A stretch of DNA of 11,122 nt from an uncultured archaeon (GTDB lineage Archaea; Iainarchaeota; Iainarchaeia; Iainarchaeales; CSSED10-239): the NCBI GenBank assembly GCA_964468895.1, contig CAYXWT010000025.1, forward strand, positions 1-11,122, written 5' to 3'. Shown here piece after piece: positions 1,396 through 11,122 of this stretch. A model generated the notes under the pieces. It searched no databases. It saw nothing but the letters and a program-made list of their open reading frames with translations, and was not told where the DNA came from. Every line of letters begins with the position of its first letter. The stretch's first letter is position 1. The translations under genes were made by a program, and so were the position numbers.

Positions 1396-1436
1396 AAACT
1401 TGTTTTTATAAGTCAGGTTAGATTTGGATTTGAAAA

Positions 1437-1570
1437 ATATTTCTAATATAGATACAAAAGTATTTGATCAAACAGTTAAAAGAAAGATTTTTAGATTTTT
1501 TAAAGAATTTTGGTTTCAATTAACAAAAAGAACTAAATTCTTTAAGATCACAATTTGTGACCTTAAAAAA
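1437..1570 (+). pseudogene. ORF6N-domain gene fragment (no start, no C-terminal part)
   Basis: It translates to NIDTKVFDQTVKRKIFRFFKEFWFQLTKRTKFFKITICDL. This is homologous to the VDTRILNQVVKRNISRFPKRFLFQLT... region of the other copies, and it retains the intragenic palindrome. Confidence 0.6.
1546..1562. repeat. Intragenic palindrome (ORF6N fragment)
   Basis: GATCACAA-T-TTGTGACC. The core TCACAA/TTGTGA is perfect and there is one outer mismatch. Confidence 0.8.
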
Positions 1571-1639
1571 AGGAAAAATATTTTATTGTAAAAAAATGAA
1601 TTGCTTTTTTATATTAGATATAGATGTAAATGATATTTT

Positions 1640-2102
1640 TGATAAATATGTTGTGTTTCAACAGGAAGATTAAATGAACAGGTTAAAAGAAATAAATCTA
1701 GATTCCCTAAAGATTTTGTTTTTCAATTAACCAAATCAGAAAAAGAGGTTATCGCAAATTGCGATAACCTTAACGATATTAAATATTCTCCAAAATCGTC
1801 TTTTGTATTTACTGAACAAGATGTAGCTATGCTTTCTGGGATACTAAATAGTAAAAAAGCAATAGAAGTGAATGTTCAAATTATGAGTGCTTTTGTAGCA
1901 ATGAGAAGATTTATATCTTCAAATACTTCTATTTCTAATAGATTAGAACATATTGAAAAAAAACTATAGATTATGACTCTAATTTTAAAAAAACATATCA
2001 TATAGGTGCTTCTCTTAAAGATCTTGGTAAAAAATGGTTTGCCTTTTCTAAACTTAACTTAACTTAGATATTAATAATATTTTAGATAAGTTAGATAAAT
2101 AA
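1640..2102 (+). pseudogene. ORF6N-family gene that is 5'-truncated and internally deleted
   Basis: Frame from 1670: LNEQVKRNKSRFPKDFVFQLTKSEKEVIANCDNLNDIKYSPKSSFVFTEQDVAMLSGILNSKKAIEVNVQIMSAFVAMRRFISSNTSISNRLEHIEKKL*. After the YDSNF region it jumps straight to ...YHIGASLKDLGKKWFAFSKLNL...DKLDK and TAA 2100-2102. About 324 nt are missing relative to 2167..3054. Confidence 0.75.
1746..1770. repeat. Intragenic palindrome (25 nt, perfect)
   Basis: AGGTTATCGCAA-A-TTGCGATAACCT, with 12-bp arms. It encodes VIANCDN. Confidence 0.9.
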
Positions 2103-2105
2103 TTT

Positions 2106-2134
2106 TTTTGCTACGGTCAATCACCCTTTAGAAA
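2106..2134 (+). repeat. Junction element copy J2
   Basis: TTTTGCTACGGTCAATCACCCTTTAGAAA. The T-run abuts stop codon 2100-2102. TTTAG at 2127 is 40 nt upstream of ATG 2167. Confidence 0.85.
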
Positions 2135-2166
2135 ATAACTCTTCTTTTTGAAGTCATATTATATTT

Positions 2167-3054
2167 ATGAGTAAAGATAAATTAAAAGTTGTTTCTTTAG
2201 ATAATGTTATTATCAGAAAAAAGATTTATACAATAAGAAATAAACAGGTTATGTTAGACCGAGATTTGGCTAGATTGTATGGTGTATCTACTAAAAGGTT
2301 AAATGAGCAAGTTAAAAGAAATATAGGTAGATTTCCTAAAGATTTTATGTTTCATATATATAAAAAAGAAAAAGATGAACTGGTCGCAATTTGCGACCAC
2401 CTCACATCTATTAAATTTGCATCTAGTTTGCCTTATGTTTTTACTGAACAAGGGGTAGCCATGCTTTCAGGCATATTAAATAGTAAGAAAGCAATAGATA
2501 TAAATATTCAAATTATGAGAGCTTTTGTATCTATGAAAAGATTTATTTCTTCAAATATTTCTATTTCTAATAGGTTAGAGTGTGTTGAACAAAAGCAAAT
2601 TAAATATGATTCTAATTTCAAAGAAATATTTGCAATTATTGATAGTAAAGAAAATAAATTAAAAGATCAAGGTATATTTTTTAATGGAGAAATATTTGAT
2701 TCTTATAAGTTTGTTGTTGATTTACTAAAAACTGCTAAAACCAGTATTATTTTAATAGATAATTATATTGATGAGTCTATTTTAACTTTATTTACAAAAA
2801 TAAATAAAAATATAAAAATTAAAATCTATACAAATATAAATAATAAAGTTAAATTAGATGTTAACAAATATAACTTTCAATATAATAATCTTGATGTTAT
2901 TGACTTTAAAGAGTCTCATGATAGATTTCTTATTATTGATAATAAAGAAACATATCATATAGGAGCTTCTCTTAAAGATCTAGGTAAAAAGTGGTTTGCT
3001 TTTTCTAAACTTAACCTAGATATTAATAATATTTTAGATAAGTTAGATAAATAA
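2167..3054 (+). CDS. ORF6N (KilA-N-like) domain protein with a C-terminal PLD-like (H-x-R) domain. This is the only full-length copy in the window.
   Basis: 295-aa ORF. The N-terminal part reads IYTIRNKQVMLDRDLARLYGVSTKRLNEQVKRNIGRFPKDFMF...PYVFTEQGVAMLSGILNSKKAIDINIQIMRAFV, which are classic ORF6N motifs. The C-terminal part reads SIILIDNYIDESILTL...SHDRFLIIDNKETYHIGASLKDLGKKWFAF. Confidence 0.8.
   Translation: MSKDKLKVVSLDNVIIRKKIYTIRNKQVMLDRDLARLYGVSTKRLNEQVKRNIGRFPKDFMFHIYKKEKDELVAICDHLTSIKFASSLPYVFTEQGVAMLSGILNSKKAIDINIQIMRAFVSMKRFISSNISISNRLECVEQKQIKYDSNFKEIFAIIDSKENKLKDQGIFFNGEIFDSYKFVVDLLKTAKTSIILIDNYIDESILTLFTKINKNIKIKIYTNINNKVKLDVNKYNFQYNNLDVIDFKESHDRFLIIDNKETYHIGASLKDLGKKWFAFSKLNLDINNILDKLDK
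2381..2399. repeat. Intragenic palindrome
   Basis: TGGTCGCAA-T-TTGCGACCA, with 9-bp perfect arms. It encodes VAICDH. Confidence 0.9.
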
Positions 3055-3057
3055 TTG

Positions 3058-3086
3058 TTTTGCTACGGTCAATCACCCTTTAGAAA
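3058..3086 (+). repeat. Junction element copy J3
   Basis: TTTTGCTACGGTCAATCACCCTTTAGAAA. It starts 3 nt after stop 3052-3054. TTTAG at 3079 is 40 nt upstream of ATG 3119. Confidence 0.85.
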
Positions 3087-3118
3087 ATAACTCTTCTTTT
3101 TGAAGTCATATTATATTT

Positions 3119-3480
3119 ATGAGTAAAGATAAATTAAAAGTAGTTTCTTTAGATAATGTTATTATCGGAAAAAAGATTTATACAATAAGAAATAAACAAG
3201 TTATGTTAGATAGAGATCTAGCATTTCTTTATAAAATTGAAAATAGAATTTTAAAACAAACAGTTAGAAGAAATCTAAAAAGGTTCCCTAAAGATTTTAT
3301 GTTTGAGTTAACTAATATAGAGATGGACTTTATGGTATCACAAAATGTGATACCTTCAAAAAAATATTTTGGCGGATCTAAACCATATGTTTTTACTAAA
3401 TAAGGCGTAGCTATGATTTTAGGTATCTTAAATTATAAAATTATTGTAAAGATAAATCTTCAAATTATGAGCTTTAGGAT
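3119..3480 (+). pseudogene. ORF6N-family gene with a premature stop and no C-terminal domain
   Basis: The first 30 codons are nearly identical to 2167..3054. The ORF stops at FTK* (3401-3403), where paralogs have FTEQGV. Homology continues out of ORF (GVAMILGILNYKIIVKINLQIMSF) to about 3480 and is then lost. Confidence 0.65.
3334..3354. repeat. Intragenic palindrome
   Basis: GGTATCACA-AAA-TGTGATACC, with 9-bp perfect arms. It encodes VSQNVIP. Confidence 0.9.
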
Positions 3481-3603
3481 AAAACTATTCTATAACTATA
3501 GTGTTGACCTTTTTTTCAAATATGTGTTTTTACCTAATAATATAATGTTTTTATTGTATTAATAATGTGTCTATAATATAAATAAATTTTCTAATAACAC
3601 TTG

Positions 3604-3632
3604 TTTTGCTACGGCCAATTACTCTTTAGAAA
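3604..3632 (+). repeat. Junction element copy J4
   Basis: TTTTGCTACGGCCAATTACTCTTTAGAAA. TTTAG at 3625 is 40 nt upstream of ATG 3665, although the spacer sequence differs from J2/J3. Confidence 0.85.
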
Positions 3633-3664
3633 TTAATATCATTAATTGTTTATATATATTATAT

Positions 3665-4415
3665 ATGGTTTCTAATAATTTCTCTGAATTACCTGTACAA
3701 ATAAATAATATAAAAAATAAAATATATATATTAAGAAATCAAGAAATAATAGTGGATAGAGATTTGGCCAAGTTTTATTGTGTAGATACAAGAATATTAA
3801 ATCAAGTTGTAAAACGTAATATTTCTAGATTTCCAAAAAGATTCCTGTTTCAATTGACTACTATAGAATTTAATATTTGGAAATCACAAATTGTGATGTC
3901 CAATAAAGAAAAAATGGGTCTTAGAAAAAATCCTTTTGCTTTTACTGAACAAGGTGTATCTATGCTTTCAGGTCTTTTAAATAGTAAAACTGCTATTGTG
4001 GTAAGTATCCAAATAATAGATGCTTTTGTATCTATGAGAAGATTTATATCTTCAAATACTTCTATTTCTAATAGATTAGAACATATAGAATAAAAAACTA
4101 CTGAATATGATTCTAATAGACAATTACATTGATGAGTCTATTTTAACTTTATTTACAAAGATAAATAAAAATATCAAAGTTAAAATTTATACAAATATAA
4201 ATAATAAAGTTAAATTAGATGTTAACAAATATAACTTTCAATATAATAATCTTGGTGTTGTTGATTTTAAGGTGTCTTATGATAGATTTCTTATTATTGA
4301 TAGTAAAGAAATATATCATATAGGAGCTTCTCTTAAAGATCTAGGTAAAAAGTGGTTTGCCTTTTCTAAACTTAACCTAGATATTGATAATATTTTAGAT
4401 AAGTTAGATAAATAA
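3665..4415 (+). pseudogene. ORF6N + PLD-like gene disrupted by a nonsense codon and a 140-nt deletion (track ORFs 3665..4093 and 4107..4415)
   Basis: TAA 4091-4093 sits where the intact copy has CAA. ...tatgattctaat|agacaattacattgatgag joins sequence equivalent to 2616 and 2757 of the intact copy. That is a 140-nt deletion (not a multiple of 3) between TAAT microhomologies. The downstream part is about 90% identical to the C-terminal domain of 2167..3054. Confidence 0.8.
3879..3901. repeat. Intragenic palindrome
   Basis: GGAAATCACAA-A-TTGTGATGTCC, with 11-bp arms and one mismatch. It encodes KSQIVMS. Confidence 0.85.
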
Positions 4416-4418
4416 TGG

Positions 4419-4447
4419 TTTTGCTACGGCCAGTTACTCCTTAGAAA
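4419..4447 (+). repeat. Junction element copy J5
   Basis: TTTTGCTACGGCCAGTTACTCCTTAGAAA. It starts 3 nt after stop 4413-4415 and lies about 80 nt upstream of the Bro-N gene. Confidence 0.8.
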
Positions 4448-4527
4448 CTAATATATTGTTTTGAATACATATGTATCTATGTTTAATAAGTATTTTTATT
4501 TTTTCTTAAATAATAAGAGGTGTTATT

Positions 4528-5373
4528 ATGTTATTAAAAGAAAAATCATTAGTTGTATTTCAAAATTCAAAAATTAAAAGAGCTTGGTTTAAAGATGAGT
4601 GGTATTATTCTTTGGTGGATGTTATTATGGTTTTAACAGAAAGTGTTAATCCTACTGATTATTTAAAAAAACTTAGAAAAAGAGATATTGAACTTAATAA
4701 TTACATAGGGATAAATTGTCCCTATGTGAAAATGTTAACTAAAACATATAAGGAGAGAACTTTTATTGCTGGAAATAATACAAACATTTTTCGTCTTATT
4801 CAATCAGTTTCAAGTAAAAAAGCTGAACCTTTTAAATTATGGTTAGCAAAAGTTGGAAAAGAAAGAATAGATGAAATAGAAAATCCAGAACTTGCTCAGA
4901 AAAGAATGAAAGAACTTTATAAAATGAAAGGATATTCTGAATCTTGGATTGAAAAAAGAGTTAGAGGTATTGTTATTAGAGATGAATTAACTGATGAGTG
5001 GAAAAAAAGAGATGTTCATACCAATAAAGAATTTTCTATACTAACTGCAGAAATTAGTAAAGAAACTTTTGGTATGATTCCAAGTGAGTTTAAAAATTTT
5101 AAAAGTTTAAAAAATGAAAACTTAAGAGATCATATGGATGATTTAGAACTAATATTTTCTATGCTTGGAGAAAAAGTTACAAATGAAATTACTGTTGCTA
5201 AAAATTCAAAAGGTTTTGATGAATGTGAAGTTTCTGTAAAGCAAGGAGGTCAGGTTGCAGGTAATGCTAGAAAAGATGCAGAAGACAAAATTGGAAGACC
5301 TATTATTACTAAGAATAATTTTAGAAAAATTTCTGAAAAAGATAAAACAATTTTATTAAAATCTAAAAAATAA
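4528..5373 (+). CDS. Bro-N domain protein of the DinD-like / phage-antirepressor-like family (copy A)
   Basis: 281-aa ORF with the RBS AAGAGGTG 5 nt before the ATG. The N-terminus reads VFQNSKIKRAWFKDEWYYSLVDVIMVLT (Bro-N). The C-terminal part carries SKKAEPFKLWLAKVGKERIDEIENPELAQKRMKELYKMKGYSESWIEKRVRGIVIRDELTDEW, a conserved family signature. Confidence 0.8.
   Translation: MLLKEKSLVVFQNSKIKRAWFKDEWYYSLVDVIMVLTESVNPTDYLKKLRKRDIELNNYIGINCPYVKMLTKTYKERTFIAGNNTNIFRLIQSVSSKKAEPFKLWLAKVGKERIDEIENPELAQKRMKELYKMKGYSESWIEKRVRGIVIRDELTDEWKKRDVHTNKEFSILTAEISKETFGMIPSEFKNFKSLKNENLRDHMDDLELIFSMLGEKVTNEITVAKNSKGFDECEVSVKQGGQVAGNARKDAEDKIGRPIITKNNFRKISEKDKTILLKSKK
4703..4727. repeat. Intragenic palindrome (Bro-N copy A)
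   Basis: ACATAGGGA-TAAATTG-TCCCTATGT, with 9-bp perfect arms. It encodes IGINCPYV. Confidence 0.85.
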
Positions 5374-5402
5374 GATTTATAAAAAGTAAATACTATTTAT
5401 AA

Positions 5403-6111
5403 TATTTATCTAAAAAACGGTTTGAGACATAAGTTAGTTAATAAAAAAGATTATATATCTAATCCTAAATCAGATGGTTATAGATGTATTCATTTAGTTT
5501 ATAGATTTGTTAGTGATAAAGGTAAACAAAACTATAATGGTTTACTTGTTGAAATTCAAATTAGATCTAAATTACAACATCTTTGGGCAACTGCAGTTGA
5601 AACAGTTGATTTTTTTACAAATCAAGCTATAAAATCAAATCAAGGTGACAAAGATTGGAAAGACTTTTTTAAATTAGTTAGTTCTGCATTTGCAAAACTA
5701 GAAAAATCTTCTACTATTGTAGAAGATACTCCTAATAATGAAAAAGAATTATGTTTGTGTATTAAAGAAAAAGAAGTTAAGTTAAATGCAATAAAGAATA
5801 TGAAATTATGGACTAAATCTATTAAATCTTTTGATGATTTAAAAAATAAAAAGCAAGATACAGCATTTTTTCTTTTAGAATTAGATGCAGGTTTAAATAG
5901 ATTGAATATATCTGCATATTCTAAAGCTGAAGAAGCTAAAGCTTTAGCTGATTATGCTTATTCTGAACAGAAAATTTATGGTCGTACTGAATGTGATGTT
6001 GTTTTAGTAGGTGTAGATAATTTAGTAGATTTAAAAGAAGCATATCCTAATTATTTTTTAGATACAGCTAAATTTATTAAACGTTTAGAGCGTATACTTA
6101 AAAAATATTAA
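5403..6111 (+). pseudogene. 5'-truncated RelA/SpoT-domain gene copy lacking the promoter and about 124 N-terminal codons
   Basis: 5403-6134 equals 9903-10634 at an offset of exactly 4500 nt, with a single mismatch (5430 T vs 9930 C). There is no ATG, and the track ORF 5422..6111 begins at an internal TTG (Leu in the full copy). The DIAGCRCVV motif region is missing. Confidence 0.85.
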
Positions 6112-6134
6112 TTAAAACTACTAATAATCATCAT
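5403..6134 (+). repeat. Near-identical direct repeat, copy A (732 nt)
   Basis: Line-by-line comparison with 9903-10634 shows 1 mismatch in 732 nt. Confidence 0.95.
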
Positions 6135-6148
6135 TTTTTTCTTTATTT

Positions 6149-6177
6149 TTTTGCTATGGCTACTTACCATTTAGTAA
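6149..6177 (+). repeat. Junction element copy J6
   Basis: TTTTGCTATGGCTACTTACCATTTAGTAA, preceded by oligo-T tracts downstream of the RelA/SpoT stop. TTTAG at 6170 is 39 nt upstream of the remnant ATG 6209. Confidence 0.75.
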
Positions 6178-6208
6178 TTAACACCGTTTTTAGATATCTA
6201 TTTTATAT

Positions 6209-6495
6209 ATGTATTAAAATAATTTAAAGGTTCTACTTTTAGAAACAGATATTATTAAGAAAAAGATTTATACAATAAGATAACAATTCATAATGTTAGA
6301 TAGAAATATTGCAAAATTATATAATGTTTTAACAGGGAGATTAAACAAATAAGTTAAAAGGAATATAAAAAGATTTCCTAAAGACTTTATGTTTTAATTA
6401 ACTGAATGTGAGAAAAAAGAGGTTGTCGCAATTTGCGATAACCCTAATAGTGTTGTAGTTTTACTTAAATTGTTATTTGTATTTGCAGAATAAGA
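6209..6495 (+). pseudogene. Heavily decayed ORF6N gene (several in-frame stops, truncated after the FTEQ region)
   Basis: IIKKKIYTIR*QFIMLDRNIAKLYNVLTGRLNK*VKRNIKRFPKDFMF*LTECEKKEVVAICDNPNSV...FVFAE*. This is clear ORF6N homology interrupted by stops, and the palindrome is retained. Confidence 0.75.
6421..6443. repeat. Intragenic palindrome (in the decayed ORF6N)
   Basis: GGTTGTCGCAA-T-TTGCGATAACC, with 11-bp arms and one G/T apposition. Confidence 0.85.
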
Positions 6496-6521
6496 TTTAA
6501 TATAAATGTAAGCTAATATAA

Positions 6522-6800
6522 TTAATCATATTTTTTAGTATAAATTTTATTTCTATGGTCAAAATATCTAAAAATAACTAAATTTATATTAGGTTTTATT
6601 TCAAAAATTAAAACAAATTTTTCAGTAATATGTACTCTCTTATATTTTTGAAGTGGTCTTCTAAGGTTTTTATAATGTTCGATATATTTAGAATTTTTAA
6701 TTTCTTCAATTTTGTGAATCAATATGGTTGCTAGTGTTTTGTCTTTTTGGGATAACTTTTTAATAATGTTATCTAGTTTAGGATGTATCTCATAATCCAT
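6522..6800 (-). CDS. RelE/ParE-superfamily type II toxin (mRNA interferase-like)
   Basis: 92-aa ORF with LSQKDKTLATILIHKIEEIKNS...YKNLRRPLQKYKRVHITEKFVLIFEIKPNINLVIFRYFDHRNKIY. This follows the typical RelE/StbE layout (K..L.g.l..y.R.+i...+rliy.i......v.i....hR...Y). Its start lies 1 nt after the stop of the upstream small ORF. Confidence 0.8.
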   Translation of the reverse strand: MDYEIHPKLDNIIKKLSQKDKTLATILIHKIEEIKNSKYIEHYKNLRRPLQKYKRVHITEKFVLIFEIKPNINLVIFRYFDHRNKIYTKKYD

Positions 6801-6801
6801 C

Positions 6802-7053
6802 TTACTCTAATTTATATCTTTTTTTAAGATCACCTAATTTATTAAATTTAAATCCAGAACCAATTTTATATTTTTTATCACCATTTTGTATCTTTTTTAT
6901 AAATTTTGGTTTTAATTTAGGTTCTAATTCATTTTTTGCATAATACCTTACAACCACTGATATTGTTTCAGCTTTGTTTTTTAGATTATTCTTTGCTTTT
7001 ATAATATTTAGAGTTTGGTTTATATCTGTAGGTAAATCTAATAACGCTTTCAT
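6802..7053 (-). CDS. Cognate antitoxin, archaeal DUF2683-like / RHH-like
   Basis: MKALLDLPTDINQTLNIIKAKNNLKNKAETISVVVRYYAKNELEPKLKPKFIKKIQ...LGDLKKRY. I prefer ATG 7053 over the track's TTG 7065, because GGTGAT (7058-7063) lies 4 nt upstream of that ATG. The family call is from memory of LN.VKAKYGLKNKSEAI...LEPELKPEF antitoxins. Confidence 0.65.
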   Translation of the reverse strand: MKALLDLPTDINQTLNIIKAKNNLKNKAETISVVVRYYAKNELEPKLKPKFIKKIQNGDKKYKIGSGFKFNKLGDLKKRYKLE

Positions 7054-7093
7054 AATAATCACCAAGCATCCCCAAAAAAAAGTTTTTAGGTGT

Positions 7094-7107
7094 TATTTAA
7101 ATATAAA
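7094..7107 (-). promoter_or_regulatory. Candidate archaeal TATA box for the toxin-antitoxin operon
   Basis: The minus strand reads AAAAG-TTTATATTTAAATA about 54 nt upstream of ATG 7053, followed by a leader containing GGTGAT. An AACCTA-N9-TAGGTT inverted repeat (7131-7151) lies just upstream. Confidence 0.3.
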
Positions 7108-7411
7108 CTTTTTTTTCTTTGTATGTTCTAAACCTAAATAGATTCTAGGTTCAGTATATATTATAAATAGAAATGTTAATAAATGTTAATATTAGTTAGG
7201 TTTATTTTTAAGCAGTTTCTAAAAAATAAAAAGAGTAATAAAAGTCTATTTACATAAATATGCTATTAGAGGATATATATTTTATTTAGAAGTTGTTGGT
7301 AATTATATATTTATTAAACCAAAATTTACTTAGAAGATTTTATTAATAAATTGTTCTTGCATTTACAGTTCTAATTATGGTTTTATAGGTTGAAATAAGA
7401 TGTTTATTTTA

Positions 7412-7440
7412 TTTTGCTAAGGCCATCTACCCTTTCGAAA
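7412..7440 (+). repeat. Junction element copy J7
   Basis: TTTTGCTAAGGCCATCTACCCTTTCGAAA. Its end lies 44 nt upstream of ATG 7484. Confidence 0.7.
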
Positions 7441-7483
7441 AGGATATCTAAATCAAATTCTATAGTATATCTGATGATTATTT

Positions 7484-8333
7484 ATGATTAGTAAAAAATC
7501 AATTAAATTATTTGAAAATAAAAAAAGTACGAGTTTCTTGGGATGAAGATAAAGAAGAATGGTATTTTTTTATAGTTGATGTAATAAAAATATTAACAGG
7601 GATTGTTTATTCTAATGCTTATTGGAGAAAATTAAAGCAAAGGTTAAAAGAAGAAGGAAATCAAACCGTGACAAATTGTAACACTTTGAAAATGCGTTCT
7701 CTTAATGGAAAAATGAGACTTACTGATACAGGAACTACAGAACAAATATTAAGATTAATTCAATCAATTCCTTCAAAAAAAGTTGAACCTTTCAAAATTT
7801 GGTTAGCAAAAGTTGGAAATGAAAGAATTAATGAAATGTATGCCCCTGAACTTGCAATTGAACGAGCTATGAATACTTATTTACAAAAAGGATATTCAAA
7901 AGATTGGATAAATCAAAGATTAAAAACTATTGAAGTAAGAAAAGAATTAACAGATGAGTGGGTAAGAGTAGGAATAGAAAAAAGAACATATTTTGCAATA
8001 CTTACAAATGAAATTATAAAAGCATGGTCTGGTAAGTCTATTAAAGATTATAAAAAATTAAAAAATCTTAAAAAAGAAAATCTTAGAGATAATATGAGTA
8101 ATCTTGAGCTTATTTTAAATATGCTTACTGAGGCAACTACCAAAGAAATCTCTGAAAAAGAAGATCCTTCTAATTTTAGTGAAAGTAAAGAGATTGCTAT
8201 AGAAGGAGGAACAACTGTAAAAGTTGCAAAGGATAGAATTGAAAAAAGATTAGGTAAAACAATAGTTACCTCTAAAAATGCAAAAGAAATTTGTTTTAAA
8301 GATAAGAAAAGATTATTAAAACCCAAAAAATAA
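7484..8333 (+). pseudogene. Bro-N/DinD-like gene (copy C) with a +1 frameshift in an A7 run. It could alternatively be an N-terminally shortened CDS from TTG 7512.
   Basis: ATG 7484 gives MISKKSIKLFENKK, the canonical Bro-N start. The frame then shifts within A7 (7520-7526). Removing one A continues as VRVSWDEDKEEWYFFIVDVIKILT...SKKVEPFKIWLAKVGNERINEMYAPELAIERAMNTYLQKGYSKDWINQRLKTIEVRKELTDEW. Confidence 0.7.
7668..7684. repeat. Intragenic imperfect palindrome (Bro-N copy C)
   Basis: GTG-ACAA-A-TTGT-(AA)-CAC. It encodes VTNCNT. This is the weakest member of the set. Confidence 0.5.
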
Positions 8334-8444
8334 TTATTAAAGGCAAAACATTGATAAATGGTTTTTTTATTTATATTTAATTATTAAACTATTAAATTTT
8401 ATTTATAAAGTAGTATCTATTATTAAATAATAAGAGGTGTTATA

Positions 8445-9302
8445 ATGTTATTAAAAGAAAAATCATTAGTTGTATTTCAAAATTCAAAAATTAGAAGAAC
8501 TTGGTTTAATAATGAATGGTGGTTTGTAATAAAAGACATAATTTCTGTACTTACAGATTCTAAAGATCCTTCAGATTATTTAAAGAAATTAAGAAAAAGA
8601 GATCCTTATTTACAAAAGATATTTAAAGGGGGGGGACAATTTGTCCCCCCCCTTGGTTTAGAGTTTGATACTGTTGGTGGTGTACAAATGATTCAATGTT
8701 GGAATACATCAGGTCTGTTTAGACTTACTCAATCTATATCTAGTAAAAAAGCTGAACCTTTCAAAAGATGGCTTGCTAAGGTTGGTTATGAAAGAATAAA
8801 AGAAATAGAAAATCCTGAACTTGCTCAAAAGAGAATGAAAGAACTTTATAAACTAAAAGGATATTCAGAATCTTGGATTGAAAAAAGAGTTAGAGGTATT
8901 ATTATTAGAGATGAATTAACCGATGAATGGAAAGAAAGAGATGTTAATACTAATAAAGAATATTCTATACTAACAGCAGAAATAAGTAAAGAAACTTTTG
9001 GTATGACTCCTAGTGAGTTTAAAGATTTTAAAAATCTAAAAAATGAAAACTTAAGAGATCATATGAATGATTTAGAACTAATATTTTCTATGCTTGGAGA
9101 AAAAGTTACAAATGAAATTACTATTGCTAAAAATTCAAAAGGTTTTGATGAATGTGAAGTTTCTGCAAAACAAGGTGGTCAAGTTGCAGGTAATGCCAGA
9201 AAAGATGCAGAAGACAAAATTGGTAAACCTATTATTACTAAAGATAATTTCAAAAAAATTTCTGAAAAAGATAAAAAAAGTTTGTTAAAATCTAAAAAAT
9301 AA
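8445..9302 (+). CDS. Bro-N/DinD-like protein (copy B)
   Basis: 285-aa ORF with the RBS AAGAGGTG. By eye it is about 90% identical to copy A over the C-terminal 190 aa and about 70% over the N-terminal 50 aa. The central patch is replaced (FKGGGQFVPPLGLEFDTVGGVQMIQCWNTSGLF). Confidence 0.8.
   Translation: MLLKEKSLVVFQNSKIRRTWFNNEWWFVIKDIISVLTDSKDPSDYLKKLRKRDPYLQKIFKGGGQFVPPLGLEFDTVGGVQMIQCWNTSGLFRLTQSISSKKAEPFKRWLAKVGYERIKEIENPELAQKRMKELYKLKGYSESWIEKRVRGIIIRDELTDEWKERDVNTNKEYSILTAEISKETFGMTPSEFKDFKNLKNENLRDHMNDLELIFSMLGEKVTNEITIAKNSKGFDECEVSAKQGGQVAGNARKDAEDKIGKPIITKDNFKKISEKDKKSLLKSKK
8626..8654. repeat. G8/C8 hairpin-forming palindrome inside Bro-N copy B
   Basis: AA-GGGGGGGG-ACA-ATT-TGT-CCCCCCCC-TT, with G8 at 8628-8635 and C8 at 8645-8652. 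The stem is 13 bp and the loop 3 nt. It encodes KGGGQFVPPL. Confidence 0.95.
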
Positions 9303-9531
9303 GATTTATAAAAAGTAAATATAGTTTATAATAAATTTGAAATTGTTTTTTAATTTTATGCGCAGTTTTGTGTTTTTTGAAAATGCAATTGCTATTTTAA
9401 TTTAGGTAGTATTCTATAGTGCTTATTTTAGTGATTGTTTTGACATAATTGTTTTTTTCAGTTTCTGCGCAAAACAACGTTTTTTTGAAATACACATTAG
9501 TTTTAAAACCATTTTGTTTAATAAATATATT

Positions 9532-10611
9532 ATGAAATATATAAACCCTAAACTATATTCTAAATCTAAAACTAATAAGGCTGCTGAACATCTTTGTCAT
9601 TTTACTGGTAATTATAAAGATATTTCTAAAACTGAAAGCAATTATTTAAAAATTATGGATAATTGGAGAAGTGCTCACAATTATCCTTTATCTATATTTA
9701 TAAAAAGATTAAAAAGAATAACTAAAGTTGCAGATTCTAAAAGTATTTGTAGTCAAAGACTTAAAAGAATGCCTTCTATTATTAAAAAGTTGAATAGATC
9801 TTATGTTGGTAATGAGCCTACTATGAGATATACTCAAATGCAAGATATTGCTGGATGTAGGTGTGTTGTTTCTACTTTAAAAAAAGTAAATACTGTATAT
9901 GATATTTATCTAAAAAACGGTTTGAGACACAAGTTAGTTAATAAAAAAGATTATATATCTAATCCTAAATCAGATGGTTATAGATGTATTCATTTAGTTT
10001 ATAGATTTGTTAGTGATAAAGGTAAACAAAACTATAATGGTTTACTTGTTGAAATTCAAATTAGATCTAAATTACAACATCTTTGGGCAACTGCAGTTGA
10101 AACAGTTGATTTTTTTACAAATCAAGCTATAAAATCAAATCAAGGTGACAAAGATTGGAAAGACTTTTTTAAATTAGTTAGTTCTGCATTTGCAAAACTA
10201 GAAAAATCTTCTACTATTGTAGAAGATACTCCTAATAATGAAAAAGAATTATGTTTGTGTATTAAAGAAAAAGAAGTTAAGTTAAATGCAATAAAGAATA
10301 TGAAATTATGGACTAAATCTATTAAATCTTTTGATGATTTAAAAAATAAAAAGCAAGATACAGCATTTTTTCTTTTAGAATTAGATGCAGGTTTAAATAG
10401 ATTGAATATATCTGCATATTCTAAAGCTGAAGAAGCTAAAGCTTTAGCTGATTATGCTTATTCTGAACAGAAAATTTATGGTCGTACTGAATGTGATGTT
10501 GTTTTAGTAGGTGTAGATAATTTAGTAGATTTAAAAGAAGCATATCCTAATTATTTTTTAGATACAGCTAAATTTATTAAACGTTTAGAGCGTATACTTA
10601 AAAAATATTAA
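9532..10611 (+). CDS. Stand-alone RelA/SpoT-domain nucleotide pyrophosphokinase (small alarmone synthetase / toxSAS-like) with an uncharacterised C-terminal extension of about 150 aa
   Basis: Synthetase motifs are present: YSKSKTNKAAEHL, MQDIAGCRCVV, SDGYRCIHLVYRF and LLVEIQIRSKLQHLWATAVE. There is no HD hydrolase, TGS or ACT region. I prefer ATG 9532 (MKYINPKLYSKSK) over the track's TTG 9514. Confidence 0.85.
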   Translation: MKYINPKLYSKSKTNKAAEHLCHFTGNYKDISKTESNYLKIMDNWRSAHNYPLSIFIKRLKRITKVADSKSICSQRLKRMPSIIKKLNRSYVGNEPTMRYTQMQDIAGCRCVVSTLKKVNTVYDIYLKNGLRHKLVNKKDYISNPKSDGYRCIHLVYRFVSDKGKQNYNGLLVEIQIRSKLQHLWATAVETVDFFTNQAIKSNQGDKDWKDFFKLVSSAFAKLEKSSTIVEDTPNNEKELCLCIKEKEVKLNAIKNMKLWTKSIKSFDDLKNKKQDTAFFLLELDAGLNRLNISAYSKAEEAKALADYAYSEQKIYGRTECDVVLVGVDNLVDLKEAYPNYFLDTAKFIKRLERILKKY

Positions 10612-10634
10612 TTAAAACTACTAATAATCATCAT
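9903..10634 (+). repeat. Near-identical direct repeat, copy B (732 nt)
   Basis: Partner of 5403-6134 at an offset of exactly 4500 nt. Confidence 0.95.
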
Positions 10635-10649
10635 CTTTTTCTTCATTTT

Positions 10650-10678
10650 TTTTGCTATGGCCACTTACCCTTTAGAAA
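10650..10678 (+). repeat. Junction element copy J8
   Basis: TTTTGCTATGGCCACTTACCCTTTAGAAA. TTTAG at 10671 is 40 nt upstream of ATG 10711. Confidence 0.85.
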
Positions 10679-10710
10679 AGAACTAGGTTTTTCATAGTGA
10701 TAGTATATTT

Positions 10711-11122
10711 ATGTCTAAAAATAAATTAGAAATTATTTCTTTAAAAGATTCTACTATTAAAAACAAAATTTACTTAATAAGAGAAAAACAAGTTATGATA
10801 GATCGAGATTTAGCTAAATTATATAGTGTGTCTACTAAAAGATTAAATGAACAAGTTAAAAGAAATATAGATAGATTTCCTGAGGACTTTATGTTTCGTA
10901 TAGATAAAAATGAAAAAGATGAGCTGGTCGCAATTTGCGACCACCTCAAATCTATTAAATTTGCATCCAGTTTACCATTTGTCTTTACTGAACAAGGAGT
11001 AGCTATGCTTTCAGGGATACTAAATAGTAAGAAAGCAATAGATATAAATATTCAAATTATGAGAGCTTTTGTATCTATGAAAAGATTTATTTCATCTAAT
11101 ATATCTATTTCTAATAGATTAG
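10711..11122 (+). CDS. ORF6N-domain protein, 3'-partial (runs off the window)
   Basis: The frame is open from ATG 10711 to the window end: MSKNKLEIISLKDSTIKNKIYLIREKQVMIDRDLAKLYSVSTKRLNEQVKRNIDRFPEDFMFRIDKNEKDELVAICDHLKSIKFASSLPFVFTEQGVAMLSGILNSKKAIDINIQIMRAFVSMKRFISSNISISNRL. It is close to 2167..3054. It is absent from the ORF track because there is no stop in the window. Confidence 0.85.
   Translation, partial: MSKNKLEIISLKDSTIKNKIYLIREKQVMIDRDLAKLYSVSTKRLNEQVKRNIDRFPEDFMFRIDKNEKDELVAICDHLKSIKFASSLPFVFTEQGVAMLSGILNSKKAIDINIQIMRAFVSMKRFISSNISISNRL
10925..10943. repeat. Intragenic palindrome
   Basis: TGGTCGCAA-T-TTGCGACCA, identical to 2381-2399. Confidence 0.9.

Follow-up and report, generated by a model that had tools for sequence, protein, structure and literature searches.

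A palindrome is retained at one homologous codon position in the coding DNA of ORF6N and Bro-N (KilA-N-type) genes, and its dyad symmetry is conserved beyond coding needs. It is present in the window, i.e., the whole 11,122-nucleotide (nt) metagenomic contig analyzed here (23% G+C), whose proteins have their nearest named relatives in Woesearchaeota and Nanoarchaeota (DPANN archaea). The nucleotides themselves are under constraint, the arms covary, the palindrome survives a change of reading frame and recurs in Bacteria, Archaea and phages, and extra copies are found in 5' non-coding DNA. The function of this element is probably regulatory. The best reading of the data, which we hold tentatively and at somewhat less than an even chance, takes the palindrome as a cis-acting hairpin or operator to which the nucleic-acid-binding domain encoded around it binds.

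Palindromes of the window and of ORF6N homologues

The original prediction placed a palindrome in every ORF6N and Bro-N copy of the window. A G+C-rich palindrome was found at the homologous codon position in 7/7 ORF6N copies and in 2/3 Bro-N copies (Table 1); the claim fails for the Bro-N site at 7668, which is degenerate, while Bro-N homologues with VTNCN have a perfect GTTACAA-A-TTGTAAC at this place. The contig was scanned exhaustively for perfect inverted repeats, and no G+C-rich palindromes were found besides these sites. With arms of at least 7 base pairs (bp) and at least 4 G:C pairs, 6 palindrome centres were counted versus 0.045 expected from first-order Markov shuffles (shuffle maximum 1). 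Their arms consist of the contig's least used codons (CTG 2%, GTC 2%, TGC 6%, GAC 9%), and 9/10 sites fold far more stably than dinucleotide shuffles (z -3.6 to -7.3), site 7668 being the exception. Palindromes of the window are confined to ORF6N and Bro-N genes, unlike mobile repeats such as repetitive extragenic palindromic (REP) sequences or Rickettsia palindromic elements (RPEs). No in-gene copy in the window is followed by a T-run of the kind found in intrinsic terminators.

The palindrome is read as [IV][AT][IN]CD in five ORF6N copies of the window and as SQ[IN]V[IM] in two, which agrees with the proposed use of two frames. The distance from the conserved Phe codon to the core is 34 nt in ORF6N copies 1, 3 and 6 and 36 nt in copies 4 and 5, as had been noted, and 31 nt in copy 2. 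The arm differences had been described as symmetric insertions; in fact they are codon-for-codon paired substitutions, e.g., CTG GTC...GAC CAC versus GTT ATC...GAT AAC, with no insertions or deletions. Retention of the palindrome in ORF6N pseudogenes of the window was also seen, as anticipated. Two antisense open reading frames (2299–2451 and 10770–10949, - strand) read ...VVANCDQF... across the site because the site is a palindrome; they are probably meaningless, yet illustrate the strand symmetry of the element.

Homologues of the ORF6N protein found by protein search have two peptide classes at this site, ELV[AT][NKI]CD[HRQ][LF] (class A) and L[RK]SQ[IFN][VA][TI]S (class B). Translation of GTCACAAATTGTGAC gives VTNCD in one frame and (G)SQIVT in the following one, so the two peptide "motifs" are two readings of one palindrome. 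The 17-mer GGTCRCAA-W-TTGYGACC, read V[AT]NCD or SQ[IF][AV]T, is common to both frames. The DNA sample of ORF6N genes comprised 80 viral loci and 80 loci from the genomes of different species (the whole sample including Bacteroidota, Omnitrophota, Cloacimonadota, Acidobacteriota, Patescibacteria, Melainabacteria, Methanosarcinales, DPANN and phages). In almost every ORF6N gene sampled across these phyla and phages, a perfect palindrome with arms of 6–16 bp stands at the same place.

The constraint was evaluated by re-encoding the peptide of each gene with the codon usage of its own locus. In 112 ORF6N genes, 8.07 contiguous Watson–Crick pairs were observed at the site versus 1.12 expected (highest resample mean 1.54), and 103/112 genes reach p<=0.05 versus this synonymous-codon resampling. 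The covariation set consisted of 103 distinct 35-nt segments of ORF6N genes. Paired cells make up 86.1% of it versus 62.5% in shuffles (0/500) and 28–42% in slid controls; the segments reach a covariation score of 0.562, compared with 0.172 for shuffles and no more than 0.175 for slid controls. Changes on both sides were found in 11/14 pairs, i.e., they are compensatory. The nucleotide-level constraint with compensatory arm changes, first claimed for the window, thus extends to hundreds of homologues.

The codons used at the site follow the pairing. In class A, Cys is TGC wherever Ala is GCA (20/20) and TGT wherever Thr is ACA (19/19; jointly 39/39), and the third base of Val/Ile is pairing-compatible in 39/39 versus 8.3 expected. 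In class B, the Ser codon TCG is matched by Ala GCG in 31 cases, and TCA by Val GTG in 19. Altogether, pairing-compatible synonymous codons were counted in 39/39, 57/61 and 59/64 cases versus 8–12 expected. Asn at the site is AAT in 32/32 cases and never AAC. Pairing runs to about position 13–16 with lineage-specific internal mismatches, for example, a T.G at pair 9 in 21 'CDRF' (class A) genes, where Arg is always CGG. The ORF6N alignment is gap-free around the site, and the spacer is always 1 or 3 nt. The conserved peptide signatures V[AT]NCD and SQ[IF][AV]T are, therefore, largely the translation of a nucleic-acid element.

Origin of the complementarity as a by-product of the conserved peptide and codon bias, or by chance, has next to no probability. 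VTNCD and SQIVT are indeed intrinsically quasi-palindromic at fixed codon positions; however, resampled genes reach only about 1.1 of the 8.1 pairs, the compatible codons listed above exceed expectation several times, and the palindromes of the window exceed it as well. The condition set in advance for abandoning the idea, namely that the peptide with A+T-biased codons explains the complementarity, is thus rejected by both the synonymous resampling and the codon tables.

Tandem in-frame duplication of the palindrome-encoded segment occurs within single ORF6N genes (loci L109, L145, L149, L153 and L082, and protein P0044; e.g., 'NLQSQIATAKRHENLQSQIATS').

Bro-N homologues, host protein and stand-alone copies

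The first Bro-N set included 130 distinct relatives of the window Bro-N proteins from metagenomes and viral contigs (DinD-like). Most of them have the palindrome 38–42 codons upstream of the SKKxEPFK anchor, with arms of up to 17 bp, as in TCCAAGGGGGGGGACAA-T-TTGTCCCCCCCCTTGGA of locus L177. The ACAA-W-TTGT tip is present in most of these relatives; ACGA-AAATA-TCGT or CCGA-AAAAA-TCGG replaces it in some subfamilies, and the spacer or loop ranges from 1 to 9 nt. Among classical Bro-N antirepressors of cultured and uncultured phages, 20/78 have a hairpin at the same position at p<=0.01 versus codon resampling. Examples are Propionibacterium phage E6 (13-bp arms), mycobacteriophages Che9d (10-bp arms, 8-nt loop) and Juniormint (10-bp arms, 7-nt loop) and Xylella phage Xfas53 (GGGTAAC-GAAGT-GTTACCC). 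Conservation throughout the superfamily is, thus, that of hairpin potential at the site; the tip sequence is conserved mainly within ORF6N. An intact Bro-N gene of the window (8445–9302), in a genome of 23% G+C, contains G8 (8628–8635) and C8 (8645–8652) homopolymers, which are potential slippage tracts. The same type of G-run/C-run palindrome occurs in Bro-N homologues L177 (17-bp arms) and L167.

The site had been placed at a domain junction just after the DNA-binding domain. Instead, it lies within the Pfam envelopes (palindrome residues 72–78 of ORF6N envelope 18–102; residues 61–70 of Bro-N envelope 15–112) and within the modelled domain. The AlphaFold (AF2) model of the 295-residue ORF6N protein (predicted local distance difference test score 80) consists of the ORF6N domain, a 50-residue helix and a PLD-like C-terminal domain. 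Two core strands are separated in the class A model by an inserted helical hairpin, whose turn is made of the palindrome-encoded residues; this position fits a protein tolerating what the DNA dictates. The best Foldseek matches of the model are TrmBL2/TrmB and the PLD nucleases Zucchini and NucT; no solved structure was found among the sequence homologues of this protein. TrmBL2 and TrmB are dimeric archaeal DNA-binding regulators, and, judging from the model, the host protein looks like a dimeric regulator with TrmB-like architecture. In Bro proteins, DNA binding resides in the Bro domain, and over-expression of Bro or Ant proteins is toxic (PMC4257102). DNA binding is also described for bro genes, which cluster where baculovirus genomes are rearranged (PMC2830988).

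Palindromes of the same type were found in non-coding DNA directly upstream of some ORF6N genes in the loci from species genomes. About 11/76 ORF6N genes have such a copy, versus roughly 0.2 expected in those upstream regions (a background estimated from counts). The centre of the upstream copy lies 27–31 nt before ATG in L090, L088, L105, L160 and L098 and farther from the start in L110, L116, L129 and L159; two tandem copies are present in L105, L160, L110 and L116. In L105, the copy abuts the Shine–Dalgarno sequence and the start codon. One gut-phage family (L339) has ACTGGTCACAAATTGTGACCAGT about 60 nt ahead of the ORF6N start, and at the Bro-N locus L277/L295, the upstream copy is identical to the in-gene palindrome. 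The non-coding copies have long perfect arms and sequences recurring from coding copies (AACTGGTC, TTGAGGTC, TTGATATC, TTTAAGGTC); arm type AACTGGTCACAAWTTGTGACCAGTT is found in non-coding copies of L110, L129 and the L339 family. Hand estimates of the spacing between centres gave no consistent helical phase for upstream and in-gene copies.

In 1.3 Mb of fetched loci, 84/195 distinct long palindromes (arms >=8 bp) have this tip, and at arms >=7 bp, 133/168 palindromes with the tip sit at ORF6N/Bro-N gene sites. The 17-mer is not unique to these genes, as follows from an exact scan of viral contigs, where about 15% of unique matches, among the matches listed, are in ORF6N genes. A composition-matched control palindrome was found there in 50 stretches (19 unique true palindromes) versus at least 120 stretches (at least 87 unique) for the 17-mer; the control is at least 2.4–4.6 times rarer, the excess being real and its size not quantifiable. 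Terminator-like hairpins (A-run, stem, T-run) with the 17-mer occur near unrelated genes, such as gp32-like ones (L321, L329, L358, L366, L385, L395 and others).

Possible functions of the palindrome

If the favoured reading is correct, the palindrome would be a hairpin- or cruciform-capable cis element in ORF6N/Bro-N coding DNA, kept by selection on nucleotides, and would serve as the cognate binding site of the protein encoded around it. The encoded domain is the putative binder, autoregulation would be the outcome, and the bound form could be duplex DNA, cruciform/hairpin DNA or RNA. The intragenic site would move with the domain on shuffling or transfer as a portable self-regulating module, and stand-alone copies just before the start codon would tighten the autoregulation of genes that are toxic when over-made. 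A self-site is favoured since the non-coding copies prefer a position near gene starts and reuse the arms of coding copies, and since the products are nucleic-acid-binding and probably dimeric. The same positional preference and coding arm repertoire speak for a cis-regulatory role linked to these genes. Operator function for the gene's own protein gains indirect support from the stand-alone upstream copies and from the TrmB-like dimeric architecture suggested by the model. Long complementary arms and variable Bro-N loops favour a folded form, whereas symmetry extending through the centre, with no strand-consistent wobble, speaks for DNA.

Several observations weigh against a self-bound site. 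Upstream copies are limited to about 14% of ORF6N genes, and none is present in the window itself. In the L339 family, the upstream copy is of class A type and the in-gene site is of class B type, so strict self-type matching fails. Among the 17-mer matches listed in viral contigs, many are terminator-like or non-coding hairpins beside unrelated phage genes, about a third being terminator-looking. The arms of homologues differ widely and the Bro-N loop varies in length, which fits a hairpin better than a duplex operator with fixed spacing; recognition would, therefore, need structure-specificity or co-evolution. Perfect arms of 12–17 bp are longer than a normal operator footprint. No significant hairpin was found at the site in Bro-N of phages phi11, ICP1, mEp515, phiMMP03 and Ralstonia phage YL2, hence the element is dispensable. 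Binding of the site by the encoded domain is, moreover, something that we infer. A bolder form of the proposal is possible rather than probable: the palindrome, and not the peptide, would be the primary conserved object, an ancient nucleic-acid hairpin or operator predating the ORF6N/Bro-N divergence, kept through the frame change and in Bacteria, Archaea and phages alike, and serving as a gene-borne recognition site for the domain it helps to encode.

Maintenance of the palindrome by template switching is somewhat unlikely, although correction of quasipalindromes by this route is an established mutational mechanism (PMC7202029). In this case, a quasi-palindrome at a permissive protein loop is re-perfected or extended during replication (intra-strand gene conversion) and protein selection vetoes changes on the non-synonymous side, which results in complementarity, rare codons and apparent covariation with a functionless hairpin. 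Such a process could produce arms that are often perfect over 12–17 bp with few G.U pairs or mismatches, yet stems of 4–17 bp and some hairpin-less lineages; it also agrees with the lack of a consistent sense-strand wobble bias and with the survival of the palindrome in pseudogenes. The tandem in-frame duplications (L109, L145, L149, L153) and fragments ending at the palindrome (window 1424–1591, L113) fit palindromes as known hot spots. However, template switching must hold over all the divergence of ORF6N class A/B and Bro-N, in genomes of 23% to 70% G+C, and leaves unexplained both the preferred upstream distance to start codons in unrelated lineages and the reuse of arm sequences by non-coding copies. 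The centre-adjacent pair is kept (the invariant Asn AAT) though it is unformable in a folded-back strand, and ordinary coding regions are without such conserved palindromes, as the concentration of long palindromes with this tip at ORF6N/Bro-N sites indicates. An RNA element is also unlikely. An mRNA hairpin, located in the 5' untranslated region by the ribosome-binding site in the case of upstream copies, could limit or time the translation or decay of a toxic gene's transcript, either by itself or as a translational operator for the encoded protein. The strength of the window hairpins, covariation of the kind typical for structured RNA and the proximity of upstream copies to Shine–Dalgarno sequences and start codons (e.g., L105) are consistent with this, as are the U.G kept at pair 9 in 21 class A genes and the 4703–4727 Bro-N site, which as RNA forms 13 pairs, including one U.G, with a triloop that closes only with this U.G; variable Bro-N loop size would be harmless to a hairpin. 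On the other hand, Rfam covariance models gave no relevant match at E<=1 in the whole window, stems are mostly pure Watson–Crick, complementarity reaches the centre, where an RNA triloop needs none, and KilA-N/APSES-type domains are known to bind DNA rather than RNA (PMC4257102). Wobble tolerance differs by family: G.U is favoured in ORF6N (155 extra pairs versus 69 with A.C allowed) and A.C in Bro-N (90 extra pairs versus 25 for G.U), where sense-strand A.C mismatches exceed G.U 10 to 1. Since the two families point in opposite ways, the wobble asymmetry gives no call between RNA and DNA.

A recombination hot spot, with the palindrome stimulating breakage, gene conversion or the exchange of modules between ORF6N/Bro-N paralogues, is very unlikely. 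These genes are multi-copy and mosaic, most of the 7 ORF6N and 3 Bro-N copies of the window being truncated, some fragments stop at the palindrome (window 1424–1591; L113), and bro genes are associated with the baculovirus rearrangement regions mentioned above. Nevertheless, the role in domain shuffling that had been proposed is poorly compatible with the data, because the site is within the domain, away from its boundary, and identity between the window paralogues has no sharp switch at the palindrome. One clear mosaic breakpoint (copy 3119 versus copy 2167) falls after about 35 codons, at a good distance upstream of the palindrome, and stand-alone copies before intact gene starts are left unexplained.

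Gene array, precedents and implications

Gene cassettes are arrayed in one direction across the window, and the majority are damaged (Table 1). The only full-length ORF6N copy is 2167–3054; the other copies, except the one starting at 10711, are fragments or contain stop codons. Pfam scores are 105, 87 and 96 bits for ORF6N (PF10543; cut-off 27.8) and 27.4, 34.1 and 44.8 bits for Bro-N (PF02498; cut-off 25.6). PADLOC assigns the ORF6N protein to PDC-S05, the Bro-N proteins to PDC-S13 and the RelA/SpoT protein to PDC-S33 (each E<=1e-100). These classes are candidate single-gene defence systems, and by these profile matches, the contig looks like a defence island (2167–3054, 4528–5373, 8445–9302, 9514–10611).

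Table 1. Genes and palindromes of the window.
Feature	Position	Strand	Host gene	Description
ORF6N-PLD-like gene	2167..3054	+		Pfam ORF6N residues 18-102, E 2e-30; PADLOC candidate PDC-S05, E 8e-107
ORF6N copy	starts 10711			runs past window end
ORF6N 5' fragment	1424-1591			ORF6N homology stops just past palindrome
ORF6N fragment	about 1672-1969			both ends truncated
ORF6N pseudogene	3119-3403			premature stop
ORF6N gene, truncated	3665-4093			
ORF6N pseudogene	about 6240-6490			several stop codons
Bro-N gene	8445..9302	+		Pfam Bro-N; PADLOC candidate PDC-S13, E 3e-101
Bro-N gene	4528-5373			paralogue of 8445-9302
Bro-N gene	7512-8333			paralogue of 8445-9302
RelA/SpoT-like gene	9514-10611			PADLOC PDC-S33
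Palindrome TGGTCGCAA-T-TTGCGACCA	2381..2399		full-length ORF6N gene	perfect 9-bp arms; L-V-A-I-C-D-H, class A frame; RNA fold -14.2 kcal/mol, z -4.5; rare codons CTG, GTC, TGC, GAC, CAC
Palindrome identical to 2381..2399	10925..10943		ORF6N copy from 10711	perfect 9-bp arms; fold -17.7 kcal/mol, z -5.4
Palindrome AGGTTATCGCAA-A-TTGCGATAACCT	1746..1770		ORF6N fragment about 1672-1969	perfect 12-bp arms; E-V-I-A-N-C-D-N-L; fold -17.1 kcal/mol, z -7.3
Degenerate palindrome GATCACAA-T-TTGTGACC	1546..1562		ORF6N fragment 1424-1591	6 perfect pairs, mismatch, 1 more; z -3.7
Palindrome GGTATCACA-AAA-TGTGATACC	3334..3354		ORF6N pseudogene 3119-3403	9-bp arms, 3-nt loop; class B frame V-S-Q-N-V-I-P; z -4.7
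Palindrome GGAAATCACAA-A-TTGTGATGTCC	3879..3901		ORF6N gene 3665-4093	7 perfect pairs, mismatch, 3 more; class B W-K-S-Q-I-V-M-S; z -4.1
Palindrome GGTTGTCGCAA-T-TTGCGATAACC	6421..6443		ORF6N pseudogene about 6240-6490	11-bp arms, one G.T; fold -15.3 kcal/mol, z -7.2
Hairpin ACATAGGGA-TAAATTG-TCCCTATGT	4703..4727		Bro-N gene 4528-5373	9-bp arms, 7-nt loop; Y-I-G-I-N-C-P-Y-V; fold -16.9 kcal/mol, z -5.8
Palindrome AAGGGGGGGGACAA-T-TTGTCCCCCCCCTT	8626..8654		Bro-N gene 8445-9302	14-bp arms, G8/C8; K-G-G-G-Q-F-V-P-P-L; fold -27.5 kcal/mol
Degenerate remnant GTGACAA-A-TTGTAAC	7668..7682		Bro-N gene 7512-8333	4 perfect pairs, G.A mismatch, 2 more; V-T-N-C-N; z -0.68, not significant

The RelA/SpoT-like gene has a 5'-truncated duplicate (5376–6111 versus 9876–10611), with 98% identity over a 300-nt repeat unit (5376–5675 versus 9876–10175); the products read identically over the shared 229 residues, and the same junction is found downstream of both. 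PLD-like C-terminal pieces of the ORF6N gene are repeated behind truncated ORF6N copies at 92–94% identity (2745–3044 versus 4106–4405, also 1986–2061), which indicates recent deletions and duplications in the array. The only minus-strand unit (6522–7065) contains a YafQ-family toxin gene directly downstream of a DUF2683 gene, probably forming a toxin–antitoxin pair; an NYN-domain remnant is also present in the window. An element of about 29 nt, TTTTGCTAYGGYCAnTYACyCTTTAGAAA, occurs between cassettes in 8 copies of one orientation (412, 2106, 3058, 3604, 4419, 6149, 7412 and 10650, all +), located after the stop of one gene and 30–110 nt ahead of the next start. It is non-palindromic, has no relation to the ORF6N/Bro-N palindrome and could be a shared promoter/leader or a junction/recombination site of an integron-like array.

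Cis sites within the gene of their own binding protein include parS in parB/spo0J, the purR operator O2, gal OI, lac O2 and the lambda origin iterons in gene O. The common feature is a dyad site in coding DNA co-inherited with the gene of a DNA-binding protein, and several intragenic operators act with a second site near the promoter. However, those operators belong to one gene or operon of one lineage, whereas the palindrome described here occupies the same codon position in two whole domain families of Bacteria, Archaea and phages, survives a frame change and has variable, perfectly complementary outer arms; its binding by the encoded protein is putative. RPEs, which are dispersed repeats of 100–150 bp in many unrelated genes with presence/absence polymorphism, and REP-like sequences share with it palindromic DNA translated at a structurally permissive surface segment. 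In contrast to RPEs, the present element has 15–35 nt and stands at one homologous position within an aligned domain, with no length change. Structured RNAs inside open reading frames, such as viral cis-acting replication element (cre) hairpins and the translational operators of MS2 coat and T4 RegA, likewise have a hairpin with covarying stem pairs overlapping the coding sequence. The ORF6N/Bro-N element differs from them in having no Rfam family, near-pure Watson–Crick stems, no consistent sense wobble and symmetry through the loop.

A likeness to TrmBL1 and the Thermococcales glycolytic motif TATCAC-N5-GTGATA (PMC4706686) consists in TrmB-like architecture and in the exact match of this motif by 7/103 ORF6N palindromes, as well as window sites 3336–3352 and 1750–1766. 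The N-terminal domain here is ORF6N rather than the winged helix-turn-helix of the TrmB family, and the likeness of the sites may be coincidental. Quasipalindrome hot spots (E. coli thyA, lacZ reporters) are also short inverted repeats with a 1–5-nt spacer, where one arm is copied onto the other, giving simultaneous 'compensatory' changes and perfect arms (PMC7202029). Those are laboratory mutational events. To our knowledge, a palindrome maintained family-wide in a coding region over deep time has not been described, and no prior description of the ORF6N/Bro-N palindrome was found in the literature searched. The nearest precedents (intragenic operators/parS-in-parB, quasipalindrome hot spots and in-frame palindromic repeats) do not match it in breadth, fixed position and frame independence.

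Few domains of phages, prophages and defence islands are as widespread and as shuffled as ORF6N and Bro-N. A conserved element in the coding sequence of the domain itself is a candidate ligand and suggests how thousands of antirepressor-like genes and candidate defence genes may be regulated. That the conserved "protein motif" of two Pfam families is largely a DNA/RNA constraint matters for profile building, dN/dS estimates, codon optimisation and synthetic recoding. If the neutral alternative of templated mutation were true, this would be among the clearest natural cases of deep-time upkeep of a palindrome by that process. If the palindrome is the site of the encoded protein, phage antirepressors and candidate defence genes (PDC-S05, PDC-S13) would bring their own regulatory or targeting site wherever they are moved.

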